NCBI RefSeq assembly: GCF_000012925.1
Contig: NC_007517.1
Location: 2,550,001 to 2,582,000, forward strand
Reading direction: 5' to 3'
Length of the DNA stretch: 32,000 bases
Origin: Geobacter metallireducens GS-15
Lineage (GTDB): Bacteria > Desulfobacterota > Desulfuromonadia > Geobacterales > Geobacteraceae
Shown here: positions 2,144 to 30,078 of the stretch, in pieces
How the letters are laid out: every line of letters begins with the position of its first letter
How positions within the stretch are numbered: the first letter of the stretch is position 1
Translations under genes and position numbers: made by a program
Notes under the pieces: model-generated
Told to the model about the DNA's origin: nothing
What the model saw: the letters and a program-made list of their open reading frames with translations, nothing else
Database searches by the model: none

Positions 2144-2506
2144 GTGCAAAATAGCGACACCATATATGATTAGCCCCAGACCACTTTCACACACTCATTT
2201 GTACGTCAGGGTGTCATCTTGTGTGTTGATGCGAAACAGACTTGATGGTGGAGGTATCGTCACCTGGGTACAGAAATAGACGTCCGATACGAGCGGACGG
2301 AGAGGTAGTCATTCAAAATTGCAGTTCAAAAAACAAGACCAGTGAGTGCCACATCATATACTGTCTATCTACGTCCTGCCCGGTGGACCCATGTTCATGG
2401 GTTGTATCAACGGCGTATTCCGCCCCTGCACTGCAGGCCTTCAATTCGTAGATTACTCTGTCGCTTCGCCATCGGCACAGCAAGCCCATTTTCCCCATAT
2501 GGCGCA

Positions 2507-2689
2507 TCAGTGGCATTCATTTCCAGCATCCATATTCACCGGGAAGTCCGTTGCAGACAACGCTTCCCTGATCAGTCGCGCAAGCGCTGATTTCCGCTTC
2601 TTCTTCAAAAGCCTCATCGCCTTCATTTCTTCATCGGTGACCCTAAATGAGATAACATTGTATCGTGGAAGTCCCTTTATATCCGACAT
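2507..2689 (-). CDS. small ribbon-helix-helix (RHH, MobC/CopG-like) DNA-binding protein, 60 aa
   Basis: Track ORF 2507..2935 trimmed to ATG 2689 with GGGAGG 8 nt upstream: MSDIKGLPRYNVISFRVTDEEMKAMRLLKKKRKSALARLIREAL... This gives a beta strand (VISFRVT) plus two helices. It starts 23 nt downstream of the Fe-S oxidoreductase stop. Paralog at 10008..10181. Confidence 0.6.
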   Translation of the reverse strand: MSDIKGLPRYNVISFRVTDEEMKAMRLLKKKRKSALARLIREALSATDFPVNMDAGNECH

Positions 2690-2712
2690 TTTTGCATCCT
2701 CCCGAAAAAACC

Positions 2713-4680
<1,968 letters not shown>

Positions 4681-4751
4681 GCAAACCTCGTGTAGTTAGT
4701 AACCGGGGATTAGGGACTGGGGACCGGTAAAAGCCTTTGCTAGTCCCTAGC

Positions 4752-6104
4752 TGTTAAGTGCCACGACATCGTGGACAGAAAAATGTGCCAGCACATCGTA
4801 GACAAAGTTCTCTGACAATCGAATAGTCGCCACGGCATTCTGTGAACACCACATCAAACTCGGAGGTGTTCATGGAAGATAAAAACAAGCAGCTTCGGGT
4901 GTTGGCCGTTCAACGGTTCAGAAACGGCGAAACCCCGGAATCAATTTGCACATCACTCGGCAAGTCTCGTTCCTGGCTATACAAATGGGTTGCTCGCCAG
5001 AATGGAGATGACCCTGTATGGAGTGACGAGCGATCCCGATGCCCACAATCCATGCCGAACCGTACAACGGCAGAGATTGAAGAAATCGTCAAAATGGTTC
5101 GCCTCAATCTCTACAACAAGGGCTTGTTCTGTGGTGCACAGGCCATCCTGTGGGAGTTGGAGGACCTGGGTGTCAAGCCGTTGCCTTCTACCAGAACCAT
5201 CAATCGGATTCTTGCAAGGAATGAACTGACACATCGGCGCACCGGCAAATACGAAGCCAAAGGGACGCTTTACCCAGTTCTGCCGTCAGCGTTGCCGAAC
5301 CAGACGCACCAAGCTGATCTCGTTGGTCCATGCTATCTGACAGGGCCAATTCGCTTCTACAGCCTGAATGTTGTCGATACAGCAACCGTCAGGTGCGGGT
5401 TGCACTCATCTCGGTCCAAAGCTGGTCAGATGGTCATTGACGGTTTGTGGGAAGTCTGGAAACGACTAGGCATCCCAGAACGACTCCAGGTTGACAATGC
5501 CATGTCATTCTTCGGCAGCCCGACACATCCCCGCGGCATGGGACCACTGATTCGTCTTTGCCTGCATAACGATGTCGAACCATGGTTCATACCCATGGCT
5601 GAACCATGGAGAAACGGCATGATCGAAAAGTTCAACGACCGGTACCAACAACGGTTCCTCGGCAAAGTCATCATGACTTCAGAAGAGGAATTGAAAGTCG
5701 GCTCACTGACCTTTGAGCAGCGACACAACAGCAAGTATCGCTACAGCAAGCTAAAGGGGAGTACGCCGCTGAAAGCACTGGCCACCTCGCATGTGCAACT
5801 GAGGTTCCCGACTGAGGATGAACCTCCCAGGCATCGCCTGAAGAAGCCAGAAGTCGGAAAATATCATGCTGTCCGCCTTATCCGCAGTGACCTGAAGCTG
5901 AACATCTTCGGCGAATGCTTCTCGGTTCCACCGGAGACAGCGCTTGAATACGTGGTGGCGACTATCGATGTCAAAGAACAGAAACTGAAACTCTTCCTGG
6001 ATAAAAATCAGGTCGAGGAATTCGATTACAAACTGCGGTGATTCAGATGAGTGTCCACGATGTCATGGCACAAAAAGTTGTCCACGATGTCGTGGCACTC
6101 AACA
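4752..6104 (+). mobile_element. intact IS481-family insertion sequence (1353 bp)
   Basis: ~54-bp imperfect terminal IRs. Left end: TGTTAAGTGCCACGACATCGTGGACA...TGTGCCAGCACATCGTAGACA. Reverse complement of right end: TGTTGAGTGCCACGACATCGTGGACA...TGTGCCATGACATCGTGGACA. Perfect 6-bp direct repeat CCTAGC at 4746-4751 and 6105-6110. Single DDE transposase ORF. Confidence 0.85.
4872..6041 (+). CDS. IS481-family DDE (rve-type) transposase
   Basis: Track ORF 4842..6041 trimmed to ATG 4872 (GGAGGTG upstream). N-terminal HTH region. Candidate DDE residues in HQADLVG, QVDNAMSF and NGMIEKFN. Confidence 0.9.
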   Translation: MEDKNKQLRVLAVQRFRNGETPESICTSLGKSRSWLYKWVARQNGDDPVWSDERSRCPQSMPNRTTAEIEEIVKMVRLNLYNKGLFCGAQAILWELEDLGVKPLPSTRTINRILARNELTHRRTGKYEAKGTLYPVLPSALPNQTHQADLVGPCYLTGPIRFYSLNVVDTATVRCGLHSSRSKAGQMVIDGLWEVWKRLGIPERLQVDNAMSFFGSPTHPRGMGPLIRLCLHNDVEPWFIPMAEPWRNGMIEKFNDRYQQRFLGKVIMTSEEELKVGSLTFEQRHNSKYRYSKLKGSTPLKALATSHVQLRFPTEDEPPRHRLKKPEVGKYHAVRLIRSDLKLNIFGECFSVPPETALEYVVATIDVKEQKLKLFLDKNQVEEFDYKLR

Positions 6105-6129
6105 CCTAGCCCCTAGTCCCTGTTCTTTG

Positions 6130-7458
6130 CTAGTCCCTGTTTTTCTGCAGTTTCAGGTCGCGGATCTGTTCCGTGAGCATGGGGACGATCTGGAACAGGT
6201 CGCCGACGATGCCGTAGGTGGCGACCTCGAAGATGGGGGCGTTGCGGTCCCGGTTGATGGCGATGACGACGTCCGAGTCCTGCATCCCCACCAGGTGCTG
6301 GATGGCACCGCTGATCCCGCAGGCGATGTAGATCTTGGGACGCACCGTTTTCCCCGTCTGCCCCACCTGCCGCTCCTGGGGCATCCATCCCGCATCGACG
6401 GCACTTCTTGATGCCCCCACCACGCCGCACAGTTCGTCGGCCAGTTCCTGTAGCATGGCGAAGTTCTCGGGGGCCATCACCCCCCGCCCGCCGGAGACGA
6501 TGAAGTCGGCCCCGGCTATGTCCACGTGGCTCTTGCTCTTGGCGTCCCGGATGATTTCGATGACCTTGGTGAAGATGTTCGCTTCCGGGACACTGAACTC
6601 TTCCCGGACGATTTCCCCCGCGGTGCTGCCGGTGTGTTCCGGCATGGGCATGACGTTGGGGCGGACGGTGGCCATCTGGGGCCGGAACTTGTCGCACATG
6701 ATGGTGGCCATGATGTTGCCGCCAAACGCCGGGCGGGTCTGCATGAGGTTCCTTTTGCCGTCGATATCCAGGCCGGTGCAGTCGGCGGTAAGGCCGGTGG
6801 AGACCCGGGTGGCGACGGCACCCGCCAGGTCCCGCCCCATGCCGGTGGCCCCCATAAGGATCACCTCCGGCTTGTACTTGGCGATGAGGTGACAGCAGGC
6901 CTCCACATAGGATTCGGTGCGGTAGTGTTTAAAGACCGGCGCATCCACCAGGTAGGCTTTCCGGGCACCGTAGGCGAAGGCCTCCCGGCAGAGGTGCTCT
7001 ACGTTCTCGCCGATGACCATGGCGCACAGTTCCACCCCCAGCTTGGCCGCCAGTTCTTTCCCGACGCCGAGCAGTTCCCAGGAGACCCGGACCGGCTCCC
7101 CCTCGGTCTGTTCGATGAAGACCCAGACCCCCCGGTAGGCAGCCAGTTTCTCCGCCAGGGCGGCCGCTTCCGGATCGATCTCCTCTTCCACGGGGTCACC
7201 CTGTGCCGCCAGCTCGTCCAATATCTTCCGCTCTTCGGGGGTGAAGTACATCTCCAGGGCGGTGGCCGGGCAGATCTTGACGCATTTCTGGCAGCCGATG
7301 CATTTGGCGCTGTTGACAACCGGCTCCCCCGCATCGTTCATGTCGACGCAGTTGACCGGACAGACGCTCTGGCAGCGGGCGCCGCAGGCGATGCAGGCAC
7401 CGGCGATCAACTGGGCCACGCCACGGGGTTTCTTCATCGGTCTCTTCGCTTCGGTCAT
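6130..7458 (-). CDS. etfA: electron transfer flavoprotein alpha subunit with N-terminal 2x[4Fe-4S] ferredoxin domain
   Basis: 442 aa. N-terminus has CIACGARCQSVCP and CIGCQKCVKICP. C-terminal ETF-alpha FAD region has PKIYIACGISGAIQHLVGM. TRPAFGGNIMATI segment present. GAGG SD upstream. Confidence 0.9.
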   Translation of the reverse strand: MTEAKRPMKKPRGVAQLIAGACIACGARCQSVCPVNCVDMNDAGEPVVNSAKCIGCQKCVKICPATALEMYFTPEERKILDELAAQGDPVEEEIDPEAAALAEKLAAYRGVWVFIEQTEGEPVRVSWELLGVGKELAAKLGVELCAMVIGENVEHLCREAFAYGARKAYLVDAPVFKHYRTESYVEACCHLIAKYKPEVILMGATGMGRDLAGAVATRVSTGLTADCTGLDIDGKRNLMQTRPAFGGNIMATIMCDKFRPQMATVRPNVMPMPEHTGSTAGEIVREEFSVPEANIFTKVIEIIRDAKSKSHVDIAGADFIVSGGRGVMAPENFAMLQELADELCGVVGASRSAVDAGWMPQERQVGQTGKTVRPKIYIACGISGAIQHLVGMQDSDVVIAINRDRNAPIFEVATYGIVGDLFQIVPMLTEQIRDLKLQKNRD

Positions 7459-7623
7459 TTGAAAACCTCAGGTAACAGATAGAAAATAAACATGTATTGT
7501 TTACCGGCTGTCGATTTCGTGCAAGGTCAAGGCGCCCAAGGAATGCCGCGGAGGCGTAGCAGCGCTACGCCGCACAAGAGCAGACCGCAGGGCAACGCCG
7601 AGATTGCGCGAAAGCGGCAGCCG

Positions 7624-8439
7624 TTACAGCGCCAGCAGGTCTTTGGAAAGCAACCTGTCAATCAGCATCCGGGTCGCCGCCGCCGGCTCGGCAATGCCGT
7701 CGCCGAGGATCTCACCCTTGGCCCGCTCGGGGGAGAAGATCTTGCTGACCCAGGTGGGGGAACCCTTGAGGCCGATGCTCTGTTCGTCGAGCCCAAGGGT
7801 CTGGTTGTTCCAGACCTCCACCGTCGCTTCCGCCGCCGCCAGCCGCATGGAGACCTTTGGGTAGCGGGGTCGGTTCAGTTCACGCACGACGGTGAGCATG
7901 GCCGGCAGGGTGGTTTCCACGATTTCGTGGCGCCCTTCCAGTTTGCGGCTGACACGGATCTTCCCCCCCGCTGCATCCAGGTTCTCGATCCGGTCCACGA
8001 GGGTGAGCTGCCGGAAGTTGAGGCGGCTGGCGATACCCGGCCCCACCTGGGCGGTATCGCCGTCGATGGTCTGCTTGCCACAGAGTACGAGGCTGACCTT
8101 GTCCACCTCATCGTGCAGCTTGCGGATGGCGGCGGAAAGGACGTTGCTGGTGGCCAGGGTATCGGCACCGCCGAAGACCCGGTCGGACAGGAGGATGGCC
8201 CGGTCGACCCCCAGGGCCAGTGCTTTCTTCAAGGTGGCCTCGGCGTTGGGCGGCCCCATGGAAAGCGCAGCGACCCTGTACCCGAACCGGTCTTTGAGCC
8301 GCAGGGCCTCCTCCAGGGCATGGGTGTCGTAGGGGTTGACAATGAACGGTATCCCCTCCCGCACCAGGGTGTTGGTCACCGGGTCGATCTGGACCTGGGT
8401 CGTATCCGGTACCTGTTTGATGCAGACTACGATGAGCAT
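7624..8439 (-). CDS. etfB: electron transfer flavoprotein beta subunit (FixA/bifurcating-like signature)
   Basis: 271 aa, MLIVVCIKQVPDTT N-terminus. GKQTIDGDTAQVGP segment present. Confidence 0.9.
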   Translation of the reverse strand: MLIVVCIKQVPDTTQVQIDPVTNTLVREGIPFIVNPYDTHALEEALRLKDRFGYRVAALSMGPPNAEATLKKALALGVDRAILLSDRVFGGADTLATSNVLSAAIRKLHDEVDKVSLVLCGKQTIDGDTAQVGPGIASRLNFRQLTLVDRIENLDAAGGKIRVSRKLEGRHEIVETTLPAMLTVVRELNRPRYPKVSMRLAAAEATVEVWNNQTLGLDEQSIGLKGSPTWVSKIFSPERAKGEILGDGIAEPAAATRMLIDRLLSKDLLAL

Positions 8440-8482
8440 GGGTTATCCTCGCTTATCCTGTATTGCCTTACGCTTGTGCCAA

Positions 8483-8749
8483 CTATCCTGGCAATCGCTT
8501 TTTCGTATCCAGCACTACCCATGGCATTCCGCAGTCATGACACAATATCGTTGGCAGTTTATCATCGCCAGTAAGAAAGATATCTCCACCTGGGCTCTTA
8601 GCGCATTTCGGACAATTCATATAAAAATGTTCCTGGTATGGCGACCATAGGTTTCCGCAATGCTCACATTCTAAATAACTGCGTGATGCGCCGTAAGCAC
8701 CGAGCGTGATTTCCCTCTGAGACGAACACGAACAATGAGGACATTTCAT
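8483..8749 (-). CDS. small double zinc-ribbon protein (88 aa), function unknown
   Basis: Track ORF 8483..8848 trimmed to ATG 8749 with GAGGAGG 5 nt upstream. Four CxxC pairs (CPHC, CEHC, CPKC, CHDC). Ends 43 nt upstream of etfB. Confidence 0.55.
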   Translation of the reverse strand: MKCPHCSCSSQREITLGAYGASRSYLECEHCGNLWSPYQEHFYMNCPKCAKSPGGDIFLTGDDKLPTILCHDCGMPWVVLDTKKRLPG

Positions 8750-8873
8750 TTTTGCCTCCTCTGCCTGTACGCAACTGATCCCAGCGATACACGAAATGGT
8801 AATGGGCTCAATGGATATATCCACGTAACAACGTAATGCTCTATACACGATGTCCTATACTCTCCAGCGAATC

Positions 8874-8904
8874 AAAAAACCGGGGCAGGCACGAAGCCGG
8901 CCCC
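8874..8904 (-). terminator. rho-independent terminator downstream of the IclR gene
   Basis: Minus strand: GGGGCCGGC-ttcgt-GCCTGCCCC (one mismatch), then GG and TTTTTT. Confidence 0.6.
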
Positions 8905-9033
8905 TTGAACCACATGAACGAAGGAGTGTAACTCGGACCGGGCAGATAAAAATTGTTTGGGGTGCTTACGGCTCGACAGGAGTCTATATGCAACAACGGA
9001 AAACCATAAAGTGCAACCAGCTATTTCTCAAAT

Positions 9034-9816
9034 TCAGAATTCACTTTGTCGATATCCCAACATGTCCGAAATTTCCATTGCTCCCTTGAGAACAAGCGGA
9101 ATCAATTCTTTTTCCATTCGGTCATCAGGAAATCGCGTGGATGGTCCGTACACGGTAATCGCGCCAATTGTCCTTGACGTGTAGTCCCGTATCGGGGCCG
9201 AAACCGATTTAACTCCAACTTCCTGTTCCTCCAACTCGAGGGCATACCCTTGCCGGTCAACTTCTTCCAGATGTCGCAGAAACAGTTTCGGATTGGTTAT
9301 AGTTGCCGTTGTGTAACGCTTGAACAAACAGCTAGAAACATAGTGCAACCGCTGCTCCTCTGTTAGACCGGCGATTAGTACCTTCCCGGCAGCCGTGCAG
9401 TGTGCAGGAATACTTATGCCAATAGGGGGAATTGCCCGCAAGTGGTTGTCTCCCACGACTGCATCCATGTTAACCGCATGAGAACCTTTGAGTATTGATA
9501 CACACAGGGTTTCGTTGCATTCCCTGACAAGTGCCTCCATGACCGACCTGGAATCTCCAAGTCGCCGCATTCGTCGCATCGCTACCTGCCCAAGTTCCAT
9601 ATTTTTTATACCGAGGCGATAGTTCTTTGTGCTTATGTTTTGTTCCAGATAATTGTGATGTTCGAGTGTTGCTATCAGTTTGTAAATTTTGTTTTTTGGG
9701 AGCTGTAACCTCCGACTCAAATCCATCACACACAGCTCGGACGAATTCCCGCGAAATTGTTCCAGGATATCGAGTGCATGCCTAACCGATTGAATTGTAT
9801 AATCTCTTGTCTTCAT
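9034..9816 (-). CDS. IclR-family transcriptional regulator
   Basis: 260 aa. N-terminal wHTH (SVRHALDILEQF...LCVMDLSRRLQLPKNKIYKLIATLE) and a C-terminal IclR effector-domain pattern (HCTAAGKVLIAGL, GYALELEEQEVGVKSVSAPI). Confidence 0.9.
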   Translation of the reverse strand: MKTRDYTIQSVRHALDILEQFRGNSSELCVMDLSRRLQLPKNKIYKLIATLEHHNYLEQNISTKNYRLGIKNMELGQVAMRRMRRLGDSRSVMEALVRECNETLCVSILKGSHAVNMDAVVGDNHLRAIPPIGISIPAHCTAAGKVLIAGLTEEQRLHYVSSCLFKRYTTATITNPKLFLRHLEEVDRQGYALELEEQEVGVKSVSAPIRDYTSRTIGAITVYGPSTRFPDDRMEKELIPLVLKGAMEISDMLGYRQSEF

Positions 9817-10007
9817 ATAACATTGCCTACAACATCTCTGTTAACTATATGCCAGAAACATTTTTAAAGCTATACTACAGGTGCACAGTTAATTAACCTA
9901 TACTACGCTTGTACATAGATTATTAATGTGTCAAAAAGCCAGTTAGCTACTTGCAATATTGTTACAAATTACCGTATTTGATATGAAAATATGCAGATAT
10001 GTCAGTA

Positions 10008-10181
10008 TCAACTGAAGGGCTTGTTATCTATAGTAAGATCCGAACTAAAGAGAATCTTCCGTATGAAATTGGTCATGTTGATGTTGTTCAGAACGGCTAG
10101 GTCCTGGATTTTCCTCTTCTCGTCTTCGGTAACCCGGATCGAAATTACGTCGTACTTGGCATTTTCACTATATTTTCCCAT
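10008..10181 (-). CDS. small ribbon-helix-helix (RHH) DNA-binding protein, 57 aa
   Basis: Track ORF 10008..10205 trimmed to ATG 10181 (GGGGTGA upstream): MGKYSENAKYDVISIRVTEDEKRKIQDLAVLNNINMTNFIRKIL... Shares the Y(N/D)VIS(F/I)RVT(D/E)(E/D)E core with the 2507..2689 product. Confidence 0.55.
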   Translation of the reverse strand: MGKYSENAKYDVISIRVTEDEKRKIQDLAVLNNINMTNFIRKILFSSDLTIDNKPFS

Positions 10182-10314
10182 GGTATCACCCCACTCATGG
10201 TGCATTCCGCTTAAGCACCAACGGTAGTCCTAGATTTGGCAGTTGGAGAAGTCCTGCGCTCATTCCGCTTCCCTGCAGACCACATTTCAACTGCCGTTTC
10301 TAGATTAGTTGTTT

Positions 10315-13345: not shown

Positions 13346-13374
13346 ATGACCTCCAAAAATCTTTTAAAAGCATT

Positions 13375-13528
13375 ACCACAGAGGACACAGAGGGTTTTCA
13401 CGGAGGTACACGGAGAAAAGCACGAGCCTTACGTTTTGTGTTTTTCCTCGGTGTTCCTCCGTGTCCTTTAGGCCCTGTGGGTCTCTGTGGTTAAAGCTTT
13501 TCGCTGTTCCGTGGTTAAAGCTTTTCGC
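13375..13528. repeat. REP-like long imperfect palindrome plus 24-nt tandem duplication in the etfB-etfA spacer
   Basis: Left arm: ACCACAGAGGACACAGAGGG..CACGGAGGTACACGGAG. It pairs with the right arm CTCCGTGTCC..CCCTGTGGGTCTCTGTGGT (13375-13491). GTGGTTAAAGCTTTTCGC occurs twice (13487-13504, 13511-13528). Confidence 0.75.
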
Positions 13529-13530
13529 CG

Positions 13531-16360: not shown

Positions 16361-17329
16361 TCAACCCTCGTTTATCCGTTCGGTCAATTCGGGCAGGAAC
16401 TCCTGCAGGTCGGCAACAATCCCCACATCGGCAACCTGAAAAATCGGCGCCTTGGGATTTTTATTGATTGCCACGACAAAGGGGTTTCCCTTGATGCCGC
16501 CCAGATGCTGAAACGATCCACTGATCCCACAGGCAAGGTAGACCTTCGGTTTGACCGTCTGCCCGGAAGTACCGACCTGCCGCGATTTATCCATCCATTT
16601 TGCATCGACGATGGGGCGGCTGCAGCTGACAACTCCTCCCATTGCCTCAGCCAGTTCTTCGGCAATCTGAATACCCTCTTCATCACCTATACCGCGTCCT
16701 ATGGAGACAAGGATGTCTTCCTTGGTGATGTCGACATCACCCGCCACAGCTTCGATCAGTTCAACAAACTCCCTGCCGGTCGAGACTTCGGCGACATAAC
16801 TCGATTTATCGACAACTTCACCTATACTTGCCAAGGCCTCAACCGGAGCGAACGCCCCCGGCCGTATATTGATCACCGCGCCTTTATCCATCCTGCACAG
16901 AGAATGGGAGCTTACTTGGCCGCCATATTCCTGGCGAACAACTCTAAGATCGTTTCCGGATACTTCCAGCGCAAGCACATCCGCCACAAAAGTGGCATCG
17001 AGTTTTATGGAGAGACCGGGTGAAAGGTCCATGCCAAATGCATCATGGGGTACAAGCACGATTGCATCAGTGGGGAGAACGGCAAGAAGCGCCTTTCTGA
17101 GAACCTCTGCGTTGGGATAGGCAAAAGCAGAGTTGCCAAGCTTCCATACCTGCTTGTATGTTGATGCCGTCTGGCTGCAGGCCTGGTCCAGATCAGCACC
17201 GGAACCTGCCACCAGAGCTATCGGTTCGGCGGACGCATCAATATTCCTGGCCGCGGAGATCAATTCCAAAGCGGTATCATCTACCGCACCACCCTTATGC
17301 TTGATATAGGCAAAGATCTGAGCCGCCAT
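16361..17329 (-). CDS. etfA: electron transfer flavoprotein alpha subunit
   Basis: 322 aa. PKVYLACGISGSFQHLGGI FAD motif. Start overlaps the etfB stop (TAATG). Confidence 0.9.
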   Translation of the reverse strand: MAAQIFAYIKHKGGAVDDTALELISAARNIDASAEPIALVAGSGADLDQACSQTASTYKQVWKLGNSAFAYPNAEVLRKALLAVLPTDAIVLVPHDAFGMDLSPGLSIKLDATFVADVLALEVSGNDLRVVRQEYGGQVSSHSLCRMDKGAVINIRPGAFAPVEALASIGEVVDKSSYVAEVSTGREFVELIEAVAGDVDITKEDILVSIGRGIGDEEGIQIAEELAEAMGGVVSCSRPIVDAKWMDKSRQVGTSGQTVKPKVYLACGISGSFQHLGGIKGNPFVVAINKNPKAPIFQVADVGIVADLQEFLPELTERINEG

Positions 17330-18111
17330 TATTTGAGCCCTCCTTTGGCTTTGAGCATTTCGACCAGTTTATCGATTATTTCTTCGTTGCTCCCATCAAG
17401 CATCTCGGCACCGGCACCCAATTCGGGGACAAAATAGTCCTCCCTGCGTACACGAGGTTCAACTGCTGCCGTTGACAGCCCCAGCTCACCGGCCCCATGC
17501 ACCGGAATCTGCACCGATGCCACCTGGCGGATGCCGCGGATGCCTACATAGCGCGGCTCGTTTATGCCTGTCTGAATCGACAGCACGCACGGCAGCGATA
17601 TCCGGTTCATTTCGATATTTCCCCCATCAACTTCCCGTCCGACTTTCAGGGTCTTGTCATCGACGATCTCGATGCTGTTTACCAGTGAGGCGTAGGGGAA
17701 ATCAAGGAGGGCTGCCAGCATACCCCCGACTTCTCCTGCCCCGGCGTCGGCCTGAGCACCAGCGAGGATCAGGTCGTATTTCCCTTTTTCGATCTCGGCC
17801 TTCAGAATTGTGGCGAGCCCTCTTCCATCCGTTCCCGCGAATGATTCGTCTTGCAGGAGAATGCCTCGATCAGCGCCCATAGCCATCTCGCGACGCAACA
17901 CTTCCTCTGATTCCCCGTCACCGACAGTCACAACGGTCACGGAACCGCCCGAGCTTTCCTTTATCCTGATTGCCTCCTCGACCGCGTAGTTGTCCCATTC
18001 GTTGACCGAATAGACCAACGAATCCCTTTCGATGTCACTGCCGTCGGCATTGACTTCGATTTCGTTTTCAGCGGTATCAGGTACCCTCGTGACACAAACC
18101 AGAATTTCCAT
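17329..18111 (-). CDS. etfB: electron transfer flavoprotein beta subunit
   Basis: 260 aa, MEILVCVTRVPDTAEN N-terminus. Divergent from the other two EtfB copies. Confidence 0.9.
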   Translation of the reverse strand: MEILVCVTRVPDTAENEIEVNADGSDIERDSLVYSVNEWDNYAVEEAIRIKESSGGSVTVVTVGDGESEEVLRREMAMGADRGILLQDESFAGTDGRGLATILKAEIEKGKYDLILAGAQADAGAGEVGGMLAALLDFPYASLVNSIEIVDDKTLKVGREVDGGNIEMNRISLPCVLSIQTGINEPRYVGIRGIRQVASVQIPVHGAGELGLSTAAVEPRVRREDYFVPELGAGAEMLDGSNEEIIDKLVEMLKAKGGLK

Positions 18112-18176: not shown

Positions 18177-20255
18177 TTACGTTACTGAAAGATGCCTATC
18201 GGCCAGTTCCACTAGGTCAATGACCTCCATCGTTCCTTCCAGTCCGCTGACCTTGATGGCATCCTCGATATTGACCATACAGAACGGGCATGCCGTGACG
18301 ATCACATTGGCCCCCGCCTCCTGTGCCATCTTGACCCGCAGCACACCCATGCGCTGCTCTTCCTCCGGCTCGAAAAACAGCATCAGCCCACCGCCACCAC
18401 AGCAGAATGAACGGTCGCGGCACCTGTCCATTTCAACCTTCCGCAAGCCGGGAATAGCGTCAAGCACCCCACGGGGATCGTCATAGAGCTCATTGTGCCT
18501 GCCAAGGTAACACGGGTCATGGAAGGTGTAGACCTTCGCGGGATCTTCGACCGCACTGAACCTGATCCTCCCCGAGCTGAGGCTCTTCATGATAGTCTGG
18601 CTAATGTGCTCCACAGGTGGGAGTCCCTGGTAGTCGTTTTTGAGCGCATTGAAAGCATGGGGGTCGGCAGTAACAATCTGGCGGACACCGGTCTCCTTTA
18701 TGACTTCCATGTTGTGGGCCTTGAGCGTCTGATAAAGGGTTTCCTCGCCAAAACGGAGCACTTCGTTACCGCTGTCGCGCTCATCCGCACCGAGAATACC
18801 GAAATCGATCCCTGCCGCGGTGAGCACTCTGGCCGTAGCTCGCCCGATCTCCTGCATCCGGTCGTCATAGGAGGTAATACTGTCTACAAAGTAGAGCGTA
18901 TCGGCCTGCTGTTGACCATCAAACACCTTCACCGGATAGTTGGCGGCAAACTCGGCCTCCTTGGTCCAGTCCGCACGTTTTTTCTCCAGCTTGCCCCACG
19001 GGTTGCCGCGTTTCTCCAATGCACCCAACGGTTTCTGGAGTGACTGCGGCACCATCCCCTCGTCGACCATGCCTCTACGGAGATCAACGATCTTATCGAT
19101 GTATTCGATCAGAACGGGGCACTCCTCCTCGCAGGCCCCACAAGTAGTACAGGACCAAATTTCATCCTCGTGGAGCACCGTTCCGATCAGACGTTCGTCC
19201 TGGTTCCCCCCATCTCCGAACAAGGGATACCGATTAAAGGCGTAATCCCGGCATTTGATCGAGATGAACCGAGGCGACAGCGGCCGGCCGACCGCATTGG
19301 CAGGGCAGTTGTCCGAACAGCGGCCGCAGTCGACGCAGGAGTAAAAGTCCAGCATATGCTTCCAGCTGAAATCCTCTAACTTCTTTACTCCCAACGATTC
19401 CAGGCCGTCGAGCTCGTCGTCAGTCACCCCCCAGCGTACCGGCTTGATCCTTCCCTTGCTGAGCTTGGTGAGAAATACATTGGGGAGTGAGGTGATAACA
19501 TGGAAATGCTTGCCGAAAGGGAGCAGACAGAGGAAGGAGAAGAACACCACTTCATGCAGGAAGTAACTCCCCAGATGGATTTTCTGAAGCAGCGTCGGAG
19601 AAAGGGAACTGAACAACTGCGCCGCGACCCACGAACCGGTCACCGGAACCAGCAGATGGTGGAGAGCTCCGGCTTGGGACTGGGCAGCAGCGCGGCTCCC
19701 TTCAAAGAGCATGTCGCAGGTCACAAGAGCAGCGATAAGAAGCAACACCAGTACCGCTTCGCCCGTATGATCCTTGTCTCCATAGCGGCTCGGGACGTCA
19801 TAGCGCTTGGGCTTGAATACTCCCCTGCGGATAGCTGCTGTGATGGCGACTATCAGCACGATGGTTGCGGCAAAGTCCTTGAAAACCGAATAGACGACAC
19901 CGGCTCTCCCCCCGAGACCCGGCAGGACAAAACCGTCCCTGATGCCAATGATCACCAGCGATATGGATCCCAGTGACAGGACAAGGAACCCCGCAAACAG
20001 CAGGATATGCAGGACACCGGCAAACAGGTACCTCGGCTGGCGCCACTGCAGCATACCGAACTTGAGAAATTTGACGATACGTTCCGGCACCTCGTTGATT
20101 CGTGGGTCAGGCTCCCCTTTCAAAAGGGGGGACAATCGTTTACCTATGATGTAGGCAAATGCTCCGATTCCGACAAGGGGGATCAGCGAAAAGAGCAGAT
20201 ACCCGGGGATGCCGAAAAATGCCGCAGCAGCTGGTGAAACAAGTGTCTGTTCCAT
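18177..20255 (-). CDS. membrane-bound Fe-S oxidoreductase paralog with a cysteine-less first CCG domain
   Basis: Track ORF 18177..20297 trimmed to ATG 20255 (MEQTLVSP). CVDCGRCSDNCP and CTTCGACEEECP are present. The second CCG domain is intact (FCCGGGG, CPFC). The first is degenerate (VDS, RDSG, ADPHAF). Confidence 0.9.
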   Translation of the reverse strand: MEQTLVSPAAAAFFGIPGYLLFSLIPLVGIGAFAYIIGKRLSPLLKGEPDPRINEVPERIVKFLKFGMLQWRQPRYLFAGVLHILLFAGFLVLSLGSISLVIIGIRDGFVLPGLGGRAGVVYSVFKDFAATIVLIVAITAAIRRGVFKPKRYDVPSRYGDKDHTGEAVLVLLLIAALVTCDMLFEGSRAAAQSQAGALHHLLVPVTGSWVAAQLFSSLSPTLLQKIHLGSYFLHEVVFFSFLCLLPFGKHFHVITSLPNVFLTKLSKGRIKPVRWGVTDDELDGLESLGVKKLEDFSWKHMLDFYSCVDCGRCSDNCPANAVGRPLSPRFISIKCRDYAFNRYPLFGDGGNQDERLIGTVLHEDEIWSCTTCGACEEECPVLIEYIDKIVDLRRGMVDEGMVPQSLQKPLGALEKRGNPWGKLEKKRADWTKEAEFAANYPVKVFDGQQQADTLYFVDSITSYDDRMQEIGRATARVLTAAGIDFGILGADERDSGNEVLRFGEETLYQTLKAHNMEVIKETGVRQIVTADPHAFNALKNDYQGLPPVEHISQTIMKSLSSGRIRFSAVEDPAKVYTFHDPCYLGRHNELYDDPRGVLDAIPGLRKVEMDRCRDRSFCCGGGGLMLFFEPEEEQRMGVLRVKMAQEAGANVIVTACPFCMVNIEDAIKVSGLEGTMEVIDLVELADRHLSVT

Positions 20256-20328
20256 GGTTCTCTCACTCTCGGCGACACTAAGAATGAACCGTCGCACATC
20301 TGTCTCTGATCAAAAAGCTTCTTTCCTT

Positions 20329-24543: not shown

Positions 24544-24707
24544 TGTGTAACCCGGCTCCGGAGGATGGGGATTTTGATCGGCATCCAATTTTGACCCTTT
24601 TCGGCGTCGAAGGGTGACCCACCACCGTTGATAACTGCTTGATATCAGGCCGCCAAGGAAGATTGACCCACTGCCTATATAGGGTCATTTTTCAAAGCCG
24701 ATTAACA
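24544..24707. mobile_element. IS21-derived miniature element / solo-end remnant
   Basis: Contains TGACCC(AC) motifs like the terminal repeats of the intact IS21 at 25647: TTGATCGGCATCCAATTTTGACCC (24574-24597), GGGTGACCCACC and GATTGACCCACT. Then the inverted GGGTCATTTTTCAAAGCCGATTAACA (24682-24707), whose complement TGTTAATCGGCTTTGAAAAATGACCC resembles the IS21 end TGTTAGCGGCAATGTAAAAATGACCC. Left boundary uncertain. Confidence 0.45.
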
Positions 24708-24740
24708 GACATCCATGAAGCGCACTACCACCATGAAGCA

Positions 24741-25652
24741 TTGCTCTTTGACAACGAGGAGAAGGAACAAGGAACCATCATCAGAAAACCCGGCTCCAGG
24801 AAGCTCTATATCCTCTTCTACTACTTCAACCGCCGGGTGGAGAAAACGACCGGCCTTGCCGACACGAAGAAGAACCGGGAGAAGGTCCGGCTCTGGCTGG
24901 ATCGGATCATCGAACGTAGGGACGCGGGTAAGCTCATCTTTGCCGATGCCTTCCCCGGCGCACCAGAAAACGAGAAGGCATACTTTGCCAAGCTGGAGGG
25001 GTGGCAGTATGCCCCGGAACCGCGGGACATCCTCTTTGGGGCGTATCTCCAGGAGTGGTATCAAAACGTCTGGAGCCATTACCCGGAGGGGACCAAGAAG
25101 GACGACTACCGGCTGATTATCGACTATTGGCTGGTGCCGTTCTTTGGGGAGATGACCTTCTTCCAGATCAGCGGGGTGGAGATTCAGAAGTTCATTGCCT
25201 CCCTCAAGTGGAAGAAGGGGACCAAGAAGGGACAACCCTTATCGAAGGCCAGGGCGAAGAATATCCTGATACCGCTACGCACCATCTGGAACGATGCCTG
25301 CGACCAATACCGTTGGGTACTCCACAACCCCTTCACCAACCTGAAGAAGCACCTTCCCAAGACCCAACCGAAACGACGGGAGGGATTCCGGTTCGATGAA
25401 TGGCGGGAATTCCTGAAGGATGTCTGGACCAAGGCGGGGAAAGCCAGCGGGATAACCGACAAGGTGCCCTATTCCATGCGCCACTCCTTCGCGGCCTGGG
25501 CGCTTACCTTGCGGATCGATCTAAACCGGCGGGTGCGGCTCATGGGCCACGGTTCCAAGAAAATGGTCTATGAGGTCTACGGGGATTACATCGACGGGCT
25601 GGAGGAGGACTTCTGGAAGATTCTGGAATACTTCGGCCGGGACTGGTGTTAG
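24741..25652 (+). pseudogene. decayed tyrosine recombinase (arm-binding DUF3596-like N-terminus): internal deletion, 3' end replaced by IS21
   Basis: KLYILFYYFNRRVEKTTGL arm domain and a core-binding domain are present. The catalytic domain retains only the distal part (YSMRHSFAAWAL, LMGHGSKKMVYEVYGDY), with no box-I Arg region. The last codon and the stop (TGT TAG, 25647-25652) come from the IS21 end. The plausible ATG at 24733 is out of frame, and the only in-frame candidate start is TTG 24741. Confidence 0.6.
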
Positions 25653-25715
25653 CGGCAATGTAAAAATGACCCACCTCGGAAATTGAAAATTGACCCACTC
25701 TTCCTGATAACCTAG

Positions 25716-27550
<1,835 letters not shown>

Positions 27551-27844: not shown

Positions 27845-28047
27845 GGCCTGAAAGCAGAACCAGAAAAATCAGTCAAAACGAATATTTAACCTAAAATACG
27901 ACGACTTACCTTTCTCTTTGGTGTCGTTTTAAGTCCAACAAGATTCAACCGAATCAAGTGCATAAGCGACAATCCAGGAACAGATTAAACTCATTTTTGG
28001 CTTCAACACGTAAAGTCAAATATCAATCGACTTCGGTATATATAACC

Positions 28048-29079
28048 TTAAAAGTATTTATTATAAATAATATTACTTAATATTCCAAGAGCAATTGACA
28101 GCATAGAAGATATTATGAATACTACCCATTTTTTCTTCATCTTCTTTAGAACAATATTTTTGTTTTCTTGAGATTTTTTTGTCAGTAAAATGAAACTTGG
28201 TTCTCTATTATCGGCAGCTTCAGCTATAACGATCCCAATAATAATAGAAGCAAAAAGAGCTACAAATAACATGATTGCGAGTTTATTATAAAAAATGTGC
28301 CATTGACCAGAAGCATTTTGATTTATGAGGTACTCTAGTTTACTGAGCATATTGCCAATATCTGCGGATTTATTTCGTAGAATATCGGCTGCAATCTTCT
28401 GCTGTTTGTCCAAAAAATCAGAATTAGCCATAACTCCAGCAATGGCTGTTGTGATAAATAATGAACCACCCAACAAAAGGCCTATTAGCTCTGAATTTTT
28501 TCTTACAATTTTTTTGATATTTGGCTCTTTCTTTGTAATATTATTTATATGATTAGTTAACAATGCTTCAATATCAGCCCCCCACGTTCTGCCAGTGTGA
28601 TCTATACGGAAATCAATAGCATCCATGCTAAGGAATTTAATTCTAATCCCTCTTGATGCAATGATTTTATCGGTTTGGCCAAAAGAAACAGTGATTATTT
28701 GTTTTTCTGGCGCTGCCTTATCTCTGAATTTAACCAAATAAGTCCATGTTATAACTAAGCCTACAGATATAACAGGGCGTATTTCATTGTATGCACAAAA
28801 ATCAGATAAGGAGTTTTGTTTTACAGTTGATCCATCATCATAAATAGTTTTAACAGTAAATTGAACACATGTTGACGGATTCTGCTGACTTACCCGCTGA
28901 TCAATCAAATGATATAAATTAACTATATCTTCCTGATGAACTTCATAAGATCCTTCGAATTCTCTCGTAATAGTCTGAGGGGCACCAAGTAATCCCGAAA
29001 CAAATTCTTTAAAGGTTTCTGGAGTGCACGGGAGCACAACGTTAAAATTAGGACCACTTGAATCAAAGAGATCACTCAT
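28048..29079 (-). CDS. orphan protein: ~200-aa soluble N-terminal domain + 3 predicted TM helices (343 aa)
   Basis: Track ORF 28048..29127 trimmed to ATG 29079 (GGGGA upstream). Hydrophobic segments: LIGLLLGGSLFITTAIAGVMA, LAIMLFVALFASIIIGIVIAEAA, VVFIISSMLSIALGILSNIIY. No motif I recognise. A sampled 60-nt stretch is 30% GC. Confidence 0.8.
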   Translation of the reverse strand: MSDLFDSSGPNFNVVLPCTPETFKEFVSGLLGAPQTITREFEGSYEVHQEDIVNLYHLIDQRVSQQNPSTCVQFTVKTIYDDGSTVKQNSLSDFCAYNEIRPVISVGLVITWTYLVKFRDKAAPEKQIITVSFGQTDKIIASRGIRIKFLSMDAIDFRIDHTGRTWGADIEALLTNHINNITKKEPNIKKIVRKNSELIGLLLGGSLFITTAIAGVMANSDFLDKQQKIAADILRNKSADIGNMLSKLEYLINQNASGQWHIFYNKLAIMLFVALFASIIIGIVIAEAADNREPSFILLTKKSQENKNIVLKKMKKKWVVFIISSMLSIALGILSNIIYNKYF

Positions 29080-29290
29080 AATTTCCCCAATTTCTAGAAT
29101 ATTTTGGCCTTGCCGAAATTTTCTCAATTATCAATGTTTTTTTATGTTGTGAACCATCTCATCTTAGAGTTTTTTAGCATTTATATCTGAAGACAACAAA
29201 GTACGTCAATATCATTACAGGGCATGTATATCGTTTCCCTGGTTACCTCTTCTCCAAAATCACCAAATTACGCGTCTAAATATTTCAAAC

Positions 29291-29343
29291 TTGACAAAAT
29301 GTTGCATAACATTTATAAAAGTCTCAGAACATTTCGTAAATGT
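29291..29343 (+). promoter_or_regulatory. sigma70-like promoter with two palindromic operator candidates for the RHH gene
   Basis: TTGACA (29291-29296), 17 nt, TATAAA (29314-29319). The spacer is the palindrome AAATGTT-gcat-AACATTT (29297-29314). A second inverted pair, AACATTT-cgt-AAATGT (29328-29343), lies just before the SD. Confidence 0.6.
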
Positions 29344-29355
29344 CATGGAGGCATT

Positions 29356-29748
29356 ATGAACCCAAAAGATTTGGTCAAAGTTTGGGATGCACCCGACAAC
29401 TCAAAGCTTACCCCAAAGCAGATTTCCATCCGACTGCCACTTCTTGTTTCCGCGAAGATCAACGCCCTTTGCGAAATTTACCCACGAAAGACGAAAACAG
29501 AGATTATTGGGGATCTACTCTCCACGGCACTAGAGCAACTTGAGGAAGGGATGGAAAGCAAACGGGGTGAATTCATCGAGTATGAGCCAACTCGTTTCGG
29601 AAGAGTGCCAATATACGAGGATGATGGTTTGAGGGGGGTATTTAGAAATCGCACTATCAGAAACCTCCGGGAATTGGAATCGGAAGCGGGGATCACCGAA
29701 CCCATGCCGTTCCATGAATCGGTCGTCTATGGTGAGGAAGAACATTAA
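29356..29748 (+). CDS. ribbon-helix-helix DNA-binding protein with C-terminal extension (130 aa)
   Basis: Track ORF 29224..29748 trimmed to ATG 29356 (GGAGG 5 nt upstream). KQISIRLPLLVSAKINALCEIYPRKTKTEIIGDLLSTALEQL gives a strand-helix-helix pattern. Confidence 0.75.
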   Translation: MNPKDLVKVWDAPDNSKLTPKQISIRLPLLVSAKINALCEIYPRKTKTEIIGDLLSTALEQLEEGMESKRGEFIEYEPTRFGRVPIYEDDGLRGVFRNRTIRNLRELESEAGITEPMPFHESVVYGEEEH

Positions 29749-29762
29749 AGGAGGAAACAACC

Positions 29763-29945
29763 GTGAAAAATCGAGTTTTGGAGATGGATATCAGAGACCT
29801 TCCCATGCCCGTAAAGATCACTGGCAGAAACGGCAAAAGCAAGCTGTACTTACTAAAACCGTCAGAAAAAACCCAAGGAGCTTGGTTATGTGGTATCGAA
29901 GAGCCAGTTCAACAGATCATGCAGGAATCGCTTAACCGGAGGTAA
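29763..29945 (+). CDS. small hypothetical protein (60 aa)
   Basis: GTG start with AGGAGG 8 nt upstream, 14 nt after the RHH gene stop. No recognisable motif. Confidence 0.45.
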   Translation: MKNRVLEMDIRDLPMPVKITGRNGKSKLYLLKPSEKTQGAWLCGIEEPVQQIMQESLNRR

Positions 29946-30078
29946 CCTGTGGCCCCCTCGGGGGGCTACTGGTTACTAAATACGTTTCCACTGCCTTGAA
30001 GCCAGCCAATTCCCGAAAGGAAAGCAGCACAGCCATGGGCAATTTCTTAAGCGCAATTTGCGCTAAAAGGGGTTGTTT

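Follow-up and report, generated by a model that had tools for sequence, protein, structure and literature searches.

A bifurcating-type electron transfer flavoprotein with a fused ferredoxin domain, encoded with an EMO-family membrane oxidoreductase at an insertion-split locus of Geobacter metallireducens GS-15

A stretch of 32,000 nucleotides of the Geobacter metallireducens GS-15 genome (NC_007517.1, positions 2,550,001 to 2,582,000; hereafter the window, in whose coordinates positions are given) was analysed with a focus on an electron transfer flavoprotein (Etf) and the membrane protein encoded next to it. On the minus strand, Pfam searches identified three modules, each consisting of an EtfB, an EtfA and a membrane Fe-S protein: module 1 (8439-2713; Gmet_2258, Gmet_2257, an insertion sequence (IS) with Gmet_2256, and Gmet_2255), module 2 (16364-12440; Gmet_2264-2262) and module 3 (20297-16361; Gmet_2267-2265). 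Proteins are numbered by module (EtfB-1, EtfA-1 and so on). In module 1, the subject of this work, etfB (Gmet_2258; 7624..8439, minus strand; locus tag from the supplement of Butler et al. 2007) encodes a small subunit of 271 aa with a Pfam ETF domain, Fd-etfA (Gmet_2257; 6130..7458, minus strand) encodes a large subunit of 442 aa with Pfam Fer4 dicluster, ETF and ETF_alpha domains, and Gmet_2255 (minus strand) encodes the membrane partner. The 442-aa product has 100% identity to the ‘electron transfer flavoprotein, alpha subunit’ of G. metallireducens GS-15, and Gmet_2257 is listed at 2,556,130-2,557,458 in a gene table in the supplement to Butler et al. 2007. The window lies at the 3' end of a 300-kb aromatics island (Gmet_2037-2284).

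A first-pass annotation of the locus had set the Etf pair of module 1 apart from the other two by a segment of its EtfB, a segment of its EtfA and an N-terminal ferredoxin domain, and alignment confirmed all three differences. The EtfB-1 segment is GKQTIDGDTAQVGP at residues 121-134 (8038..8079, minus strand; aligned to five bifurcating structures, see below), whereas EtfB-2 and EtfB-3 carry GMQSQDRGSALVG and GAQA-DAGAGEVGG in the same columns. The EtfA-1 segment is TRPAFGGNIMATI at residues 241-253 (6700..6738, minus strand). It includes, within TRPAFGGN (residues 241-248), an RPxFGG motif whose Arg242 corresponds to R140 of T. maritima and R136 of C. difficile; EtfA-2 (...NAKMRR...) and EtfA-3 (VRQEYGGQVSS) differ here, and neither has an N-terminal extension. 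Such an extension, of ~108 aa, is found only in EtfA-1 among the three EtfA copies of the window. It holds a 2x[4Fe-4S] ferredoxin domain (residues ~15-72; 7243..7416, minus strand) that is matched by Pfam Fer4 dicluster and followed by an acidic linker of ~35 aa. Its two cysteine motifs, CIACGARCQSVCP and CIGCQKCVKICP (C22xxC25xxxC29xxxC33P and C53xxC56xxC59xxxC63P), align with the cluster motifs of CarE. EtfB-1 additionally contains R27-E-G-I, a conservative V-to-I variant of RxGV, and GLKGSPTWV at residues 223-231; at the RxGV and G..SPTxV columns, these motifs are present in the five bifurcating structures and missing from the non-bifurcating references. In a sample of 80 non-redundant related loci from Geobacterales genomes (83 loci for the motif counts), GKQTIDGDTAQVGP is conserved in every full-length relative, the RPxFGG segment of EtfA is invariant in 83/83 and both ferredoxin cluster motifs are kept in 83/83. 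Because these are conserved protein motifs in intact open reading frames (ORFs) and recur in full-length relatives, the EtfB and EtfA motifs are not chance matches.

The pair was then compared to Etfs of solved structure. Five references are bifurcating (T. maritima EtfABCX, 7KOE; CarCDE, 6FAH; C. difficile Bcd-Etf, 5OL2; A. fermentans Etf, 4KPU; Ldh-Etf, 7QH2) and three are AMP-binding (1O94, 1EFP, 1EFV). Type was assigned by alignment and neighbour-joining trees with eight or six PDB reference chains. In phmmer searches of the PDB, EtfB-1 scored 170-232 bits against the bifurcating small subunits (EtfB, CarD, LctB and T. maritima EtfA, the last being its top match at 232 bits), compared to 44-94 bits against the human, Paracoccus, Methylophilus and G. 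metallireducens 5OW0 Etfs. Similarly, EtfA-1 scored 270-400 bits against the five bifurcating large subunits (CarE, 6FAH_A, at 400 and the others at 270-334) and 125-175 bits against non-bifurcating ones, so that bit scores separate the two kinds of reference by ~2-5 fold. The order was reversed for EtfB-2 and EtfB-3, whose best match is Methylophilus 1O94. At the residue level, the five bifurcating small subunits follow G[KR]Q[AT][IVT]DGDT[AG]QVG[PS], with GKQAVDGDTGQVGP, GRQAIDGDTAQVG[SP] and GKQTTDGDTAQVGP in the columns of GKQTIDGDTAQVGP, while the three AMP-binding small subunits have GVQSSDQAYASTG, GKQAIDNDMNATG and GKQAIDDDCNQTG there, with the pattern GxQxxD[ND]D (GKQAID[ND]D..., GVQSSDQAY...). 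The EtfB segment is thus present in 5/5 bifurcating Etfs and replaced in 3/3 AMP-binding Etfs as well as in pairs 2 and 3 of the window. The large subunits of 5/5 bifurcating Etfs read [TI]RP[AT][FA]GGN[IL]MA at the EtfA segment. Neighbour-joining trees placed pair 1 within the bifurcating clade, far from the AMP-binding Etfs, and pairs 2 and 3 beside Methylophilus.

These segments lie at functionally characterised positions. In T. maritima EtfABCX, the Arg of RPxFGG is 3.1 A from N5 of the bifurcating flavin adenine dinucleotide (FAD) and changing it abolishes ferredoxin reduction, and the small-subunit motifs RxGV and GxxSPTxV line the bifurcating flavin (PMC10734219). In C. difficile, contacts to the beta-FAD come from the same Arg (R136) and from the segment around T227 (PMC5691135). 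The proposal that the distinguishing segments mark bifurcating Etfs is supported. The EtfB and EtfA segments occur in all five bifurcating structures, although the Arg of RPxFGG is also found in some non-bifurcating Etfs (PMC10734219) and EtfA-3 retains R..YGG. The ferredoxin domain is shared with CarE, and LctC also has an N-terminal extension, but it is an accessory rather than a marker of bifurcation, since in Bcd-Etf and T. maritima EtfAB the large subunit starts directly at the Etf fold. Overall, the comparisons support the assignment of Gmet_2258/2257 to the group-2 (two-FAD, bifurcating-type) Etfs, from which we infer that the pair would hold a second FAD and may bifurcate. An AlphaFold2 model of Fd-EtfA, built from a 32-sequence alignment (78-88% identical), reached a mean pLDDT of 50.4, which is too low for use. 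Etf pair 3 (16361-18111, minus strand) was found to be intermediate: the best PDB match of EtfA-3 is C. difficile EtfA at 172 bits, compared to 163 for Methylophilus, and EtfB-3 lacks the DGDT and SPT motifs and clusters with non-bifurcating Etfs.

The membrane partner had been described as a quinone-reducing type of protein, and homology upholds this description. Gmet_2255 (2713..4680, minus strand) encodes an intact EMO/EtfD-family haem b/Fe-S oxidoreductase of 655 aa that matches 9OJN_A over its full length (384 bits). 9OJN is the M. smegmatis ‘iron-sulfur-binding reductase’ (EtfD/EMO; MsEMO), for which a structure and an Etf:menaquinone role were reported in 2026. According to a 2026 preprint on the S. 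aciditrophicus EMO (SaEMO), the family joins a NarI-like haem b domain of five helices to an HdrC-like domain, which holds two cubane clusters, and an HdrB-like domain, whose two non-cubane clusters take electrons from the Etf flavin; three haem-ligand histidines are conserved (H87, H233 and H251 in SaEMO). Gmet_2255 has about five hydrophobic segments within residues 1-220, two cubane motifs of the form CxxCxxCxxxCP (C273/276/279/283 and C338/341/344/348) and two complete CCG motifs (C422, C457, C458, C494, C497 and C547, C583, C584, C621, C624). His68, His206 and His224 are invariant among the three paralogues of the window, SKHLHI aligns with SKHLHI of MsEMO, and the spacing of H206 and H224 is 18 residues, as for H233 and H251 of SaEMO (a comparison of spacing). 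The homology to 9OJN together with the hydrophobic segments, the His residues and the Fe-S and CCG motifs makes ‘quinone-reducing type’ a fair description. Both CCG motifs are also complete in EMO-2, as in EMO-1. In EMO-3 (Gmet_2267; 706 aa; 18177-20297, minus strand), all five cysteines of the first CCG motif are lost (VDSITS, DERDSG, ADPHAF), so that this paralogue can hold no more than one non-cubane cluster.

Between etfA and the membrane gene lies an IS481-like element of 1353 bp (4752..6104, plus strand), whose transposase Gmet_2256 (ORF 4842-6041) has HTH_23 and rve/rve_3 domains. The insertion reported earlier at this position was thereby verified. Its terminal inverted repeats, TGTT[A/G]AGTGCCACGACATCGTGGACA, match at 26/27 positions, and identical CCTAGC hexamers directly outside them (4746-4751 on the left, 6105-6110 on the right) form a target-site duplication. 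We take this 6-bp duplication to fit the IS481 target NCTAGN. The best NCBIfam match of the transposase is an IS481 transposase, although at 118.6 bits it is below the cut-off of 224. As a consequence of the insertion, 1449 nt separate the etfA stop (6130) from the EMO start (4680). Subtracting the IS and one hexamer leaves 90 nt, which align with the orthologous spacer of Geomobilimonas luticola, ribosome-binding site (the GAGG before the ATG) included. Synteny gives good support to the three genes having been a single unit until the IS inserted. The earlier statement that the Etf and membrane genes were cotranscribed at that time stands as far as the gene unit is concerned (a membrane gene follows etfA in 78/78 relatives, see below); cotranscription itself is probable, and the IS may affect expression.

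None of the three ORFs is truncated, and every cofactor motif is intact. Pairwise ratios of non-synonymous to synonymous substitution rates (dN/dS) against G. luticola were 0.08 for EtfB, 0.12 for Fd-EtfA and 0.19 for EMO, compared to 0.10, 0.14 and 0.17 in a control pair of two relatives. Module 1 therefore shows no sign of decay. However, the near-perfect inverted repeats, intact transposase and exact target duplication make the IS look recent, and decay after a recent insertion would not yet be visible in dN/dS. We rejected the idea that the IS destroyed the operon, as neither the ORFs nor dN/dS indicate decay, although sequence does not allow expression to be judged.

A second interruption was found upstream. 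The multicopy hairpin element Gmet_R1020 (7506..7618, minus strand) fills the 165-nt spacer between etfB and etfA, which in most relatives ranges from -1 to about 100 nt. It is an imperfect hairpin of 113 nt with an RNA fold of -63.6 kcal/mol (z = -3.6), and an Rfam scan of 2500-10300, which includes it, gave no match. The spacer between etfB-2 and etfA-2 (13346-13530) is similarly long, 185 nt versus 9 nt in Geobacter sp. AOG1, and contains TCTCCGTG / CACGGAGG repeats in a palindromic arrangement, resembling the ‘class 2’ multicopy TCTCCGTS sites of G. metallireducens. This makes it the second small insertion between an etfB and an etfA.

The arrangement of module 1 is shared by its relatives, which are 74-90% identical and keep all motifs. 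EtfB adjoins upstream in 75/75 loci and a same-strand EMO follows downstream in 78/78, with a gap between etfA and EMO of 7-224 nt (median 65) and an insertion in none of these 78; module 1 is the only copy among about 80 loci with an IS at this position. The gene that always follows etfA encodes a CCG/Fer4/NarI-like protein. The closest orthologues of the window copy are those of Geobacter sp. AOG1 (88%) and G. luticola (90%), and the best outside BLAST matches of Gmet_2255, Gmet_2257 and Gmet_2258 are G. sulfurreducens proteins. G. luticola carries two module copies, one 90% identical, linked to an acyl-CoA dehydrogenase (ACAD) and orthologous to the window copy (L004) and one 80% identical in a different context (L043), which dates the duplication before the split of G. 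metallireducens and G. luticola.

In G. metallireducens itself, Aklujkar et al. 2009 listed nine Etf pairs and grouped Gmet_2258-2257-2255 with Gmet_2067-2065 and Gmet_0683-0685, all marked ‘unknown’. The same study identified Gmet_0683-0685 as the orthologue of GSU2797-2795, the sole Etf module of G. sulfurreducens. We take the two further paralogues from its supplement rather than from our own sequence comparison. The G. sulfurreducens module GSU2795-2797 was found to be essential by transposon sequencing (Tn-seq) and is said to have ‘all signature residues’ of bifurcating complexes (Chan et al. 2017). The idea of a hybrid between a bifurcating Etf and an EMO is accordingly not new, as Chan et al. 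2017 put it forward for the orthologue and the genes were catalogued in 2009.

The genomic setting distinguishes the window copy from most relatives. A nif/draT, glutamate synthase (GOGAT) or glutamate dehydrogenase (GDH) marker lies within 10 kb upstream in 32/53 loci and a phosphoenolpyruvate carboxykinase (PEPCK) gene downstream in 34/60. The nitrogen markers include nifEN, nifX, fdx and draT, with nif itself in 8/51 loci. In three loci with a core copy (L084, 1676-7859; L085, 1483-7761; L002, 1-6564), the module directly follows gltBD, glutamate dehydrogenase or nifEN-nifX-fdx-draT and precedes PEPCK. This nitrogen/PEPCK neighbourhood of the core copy fits a ferredoxin-supplying role, and it is missing at the window copy, which together with its closest orthologues in AOG1 and G. 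luticola stands beside a classical EMO-EtfBA beta-oxidation module. Given this aromatics-island and beta-oxidation context, the partner reactions of the window copy may differ from those of the core copy. A Fix analogue dedicated to nitrogenase was discarded as an explanation because nif is adjacent in only 8/51 loci and the wider nitrogen/PEPCK link does not apply to the window copy.

Compared to known systems, the module combines features of bifurcating Etf systems with features of EMO systems. Like FixABCX/EtfABCX (A. vinelandii, R. palustris, T. maritima 7KOE, P. aerophilum), it has a group-2 EtfAB with the EtfB and EtfA motifs and a predicted reaction from NADH to ferredoxin or flavodoxin plus quinone. 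Unlike these systems, which use an ETF-QO-like FixC/EtfC and a ferredoxin-like FixX, its partner is a single EMO/EtfD polypeptide without flavin that is predicted to carry haem b and two cubane plus two non-cubane clusters, and its ferredoxin domain is fused to EtfA instead of forming a separate FixX. Neither at the locus nor in the Pfam scan of window ORFs did a fixC/etfC or fixX/etfX gene turn up. The EtfBA genes next to an EMO with three putative haem-ligand His residues resemble EMO/EtfD systems (SaEMO; MsEMO 9OJN; Gmet_2070 with BamOP). Characterised EMOs, however, are supplied by an AMP-containing Etf with one FAD, which in turn receives electrons from acyl-CoA dehydrogenases or from class II benzoyl-CoA reductase, and a 2026 preprint on the G. 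metallireducens benzoyl-CoA reductase describes such a non-bifurcating Etf, BamOP, with a classical EMO. Module 1 departs from them in that the adjacent Etf bears second-FAD/NADH signatures and a ferredoxin domain. Among the EMOs themselves, both CCG motifs are complete in Gmet_2255, while the first motif has CT instead of CC in MsEMO and is incomplete in EMO-3. The closest solved relative of Fd-EtfA, CarE of the A. woodii CarCDE complex (6FAH), likewise places a 2x[4Fe-4S] domain ahead of Etf domain I, but the Geobacter Fd-EtfAs have the extra acidic linker of ~35 aa and, in the first cluster motif, one inserted residue, and in the window a membrane EMO rather than a CarC-type acyl-CoA dehydrogenase is adjacent. 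The same three-gene module is present at GSU2795-2797, Gmet_0683-0685 and Gmet_2065-2067; the window copy differs from these in being IS-split and in lying on the aromatics island near classical EMO-Etf modules instead of near nif, GOGAT, GDH or PEPCK.

Taken together, we consider it reasonably probable that Gmet_2258/2257/2255 is one of three G. metallireducens copies of a Geobacterales-wide etfB - Fd-etfA - EMO module with a Fix/EtfABCX-like reaction. At the sequence level, the module unites two known kinds of system, the bifurcating-type Etf and the EMO-type quinone reductase, and the window copy is a redundant, IS-split version of it. In the mechanism we propose, the bifurcating FAD, bound between EtfB and EtfA domain I, would take electrons from NADH. 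The high-potential electron would pass via the swinging FAD of EtfA domain II to the non-cubane and cubane Fe-S clusters of the EMO and on to haem b and menaquinone (MK), whereas the low-potential electron would be handed to ferredoxin (Fd) or flavodoxin through the fused 2x[4Fe-4S] domain, a route proposed for CarE. Overall, the complex would catalyse 2 NADH + 2 Fd(ox) + MK <-> 2 NAD+ + 2 Fd(red) + MKH2, i.e., the FixABCX/EtfABCX reaction with an EMO in place of FixCX, reversible in principle; both the reaction and its direction are what we infer. In the window copy, the IS481-like element in the etfA-EMO spacer would uncouple the EMO gene from the etf transcript and leave the three ORFs intact.

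The module bears on the way in which the NADH, ferredoxin and menaquinone pools are coupled in Geobacter, and the orthologous module is essential in G. sulfurreducens. If it is a bifurcase, it would represent a new wiring of a bifurcating Etf to the membrane, joining the separately solved EtfABCX and EMO-Etf, and it would explain a source of low-potential electrons for nitrogenase and reductive carboxylations in environmentally important metal reducers. More tentatively, and with somewhat less than even confidence, etfB - Fd-etfA - EMO might be a third quinone-linked bifurcation architecture, with a haem b/non-cubane Fe-S EMO in place of FixCX and a CarE-like fused ferredoxin domain as its low-potential exit. 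It would be the chief means by which Geobacter generates or balances reduced ferredoxin for nitrogenase and the pyruvate and 2-oxoglutarate synthases, and the island copy would deliver low-potential electrons to aromatic or fatty-acid catabolism. The window copy is of smaller value as one of three paralogues, IS-split and made up of genes catalogued in 2009, but it offers a natural test case for whether Etf and EMO must be co-expressed.

Several observations weigh against the proposed bifurcating function or its operation at this locus. Group-2 motifs show a capacity for a second FAD and for NADH, not that bifurcation occurs. The first ferredoxin motif of EtfA-1 has an unusual CxxCxxxCxxxCP spacing, and the best NCBIfam match of Fd-EtfA, below cut-off, is the acryloyl-CoA reductase Etf family. 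The group-2-like Etf of C. propionicum acryloyl-CoA reductase reportedly does not reduce ferredoxin. The literature searched yielded no biochemical or structural study of any module member. The window copy is set in a beta-oxidation and aromatics-island context rather than a nitrogen context, and after the IS insertion no promoter-like site for the EMO gene came up in consensus scans, a result that does not rise above chance expectation. A weak terminator-like hairpin with a T-run in the right inverted repeat of the IS (6082-6095, minus strand), 35 nt past the etfA stop, is a consensus match only, in a region with fewer such sites than shuffled controls. Finally, Gmet_2255-2258 appear in the island table of Butler et al. 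2007 and are absent from a second supplementary file, presumably of benzoate-regulated genes.

An alternative explanation is that the pair is a bifurcating Etf coupled to an acyl-CoA dehydrogenase, as in Bcd-Etf or CarCDE, with enoyl-CoA/acyl-CoA as the high-potential partner and the EMO as an alternative or extra outlet. CarE is the closest PDB relative of Fd-EtfA (400 bits), the window and closest-orthologue loci are beta-oxidation neighbourhoods, and etfB is immediately preceded by an ACAD gene of 383-408 aa in AOG1 and G. luticola (L001/L005, L004) and on a short Oryzomonas contig (L046). However, no ACAD or ACAD remnant adjoining etfB-1 was found in the window, where the nearest ACAD is 14 kb away. 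Across the relatives, an ACAD is adjacent in only 2/56 loci with enough upstream sequence, compared to 78/78 for the EMO, and the ACAD of AOG1 and G. luticola might just as well be part of the classical EMO-EtfBA operon that lies immediately upstream of it. We thus regard this coupling as unlikely.

It is also improbable, in our view, that the module is no bifurcase in vivo and acts as a plain NADH:menaquinone or ferredoxin:menaquinone oxidoreductase, or mainly in confurcation (Fd(red) + MKH2 -> NADH). The 2-oxoglutarate:ferredoxin oxidoreductase of the Geobacter tricarboxylic acid cycle makes reduced ferredoxin that needs re-oxidation, and the fused ferredoxin domain could serve as the electron entry. 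Confurcation is one of the two readings offered by Chan et al. 2017. Against this, the nif, GOGAT and PEPCK neighbourhoods represent ferredoxin consumers rather than producers, and the residues tied to the bifurcating FAD are strictly conserved in 83 relatives, which is hard to square with a plain dehydrogenase because Geobacter has complex I.

That the window copy is an IS-inactivated, decaying redundant paralogue with no present function in GS-15 appears very unlikely: related modules do exist elsewhere in the genome (Gmet_0683-0685 and Gmet_2065-2067), the IS does put 1.35 kb, antisense, between the EMO gene and its operon and the consensus scan did leave that gene without a promoter-like site, but the three ORFs are full length with intact cofactor motifs, etfB-1 and etfA-1 are themselves untouched by the IS, and the dN/dS values of 0.08-0.19 are indistinguishable from the control pair, although the apparently recent date of the insertion means that decay would not be visible yet.

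Upstream of etfB-1 and on the same strand, an IclR-family regulator (Gmet_2259; 9034..9816, minus strand; Pfam HTH_IclR and IclR_C) is a possible candidate regulator of module 1, a role suggested solely by its position. An unannotated ORF of 121 aa (8483-8848) gave no match in an NCBIfam search. In addition to the regulator, the window contains sucCD and genes for a thiolase, a 3-hydroxyacyl-CoA dehydrogenase, a long acyl-CoA dehydrogenase, an integrase and an IS21 istAB pair. The last two mark the 3' border of the island (24639-27550), with a phage-type integrase (Gmet_2271) and the istAB pair (Gmet_2272-2273), which is reported in three identical genome copies. Beyond them, at 28000-30000, follows a low-GC stretch (33-43% GC).

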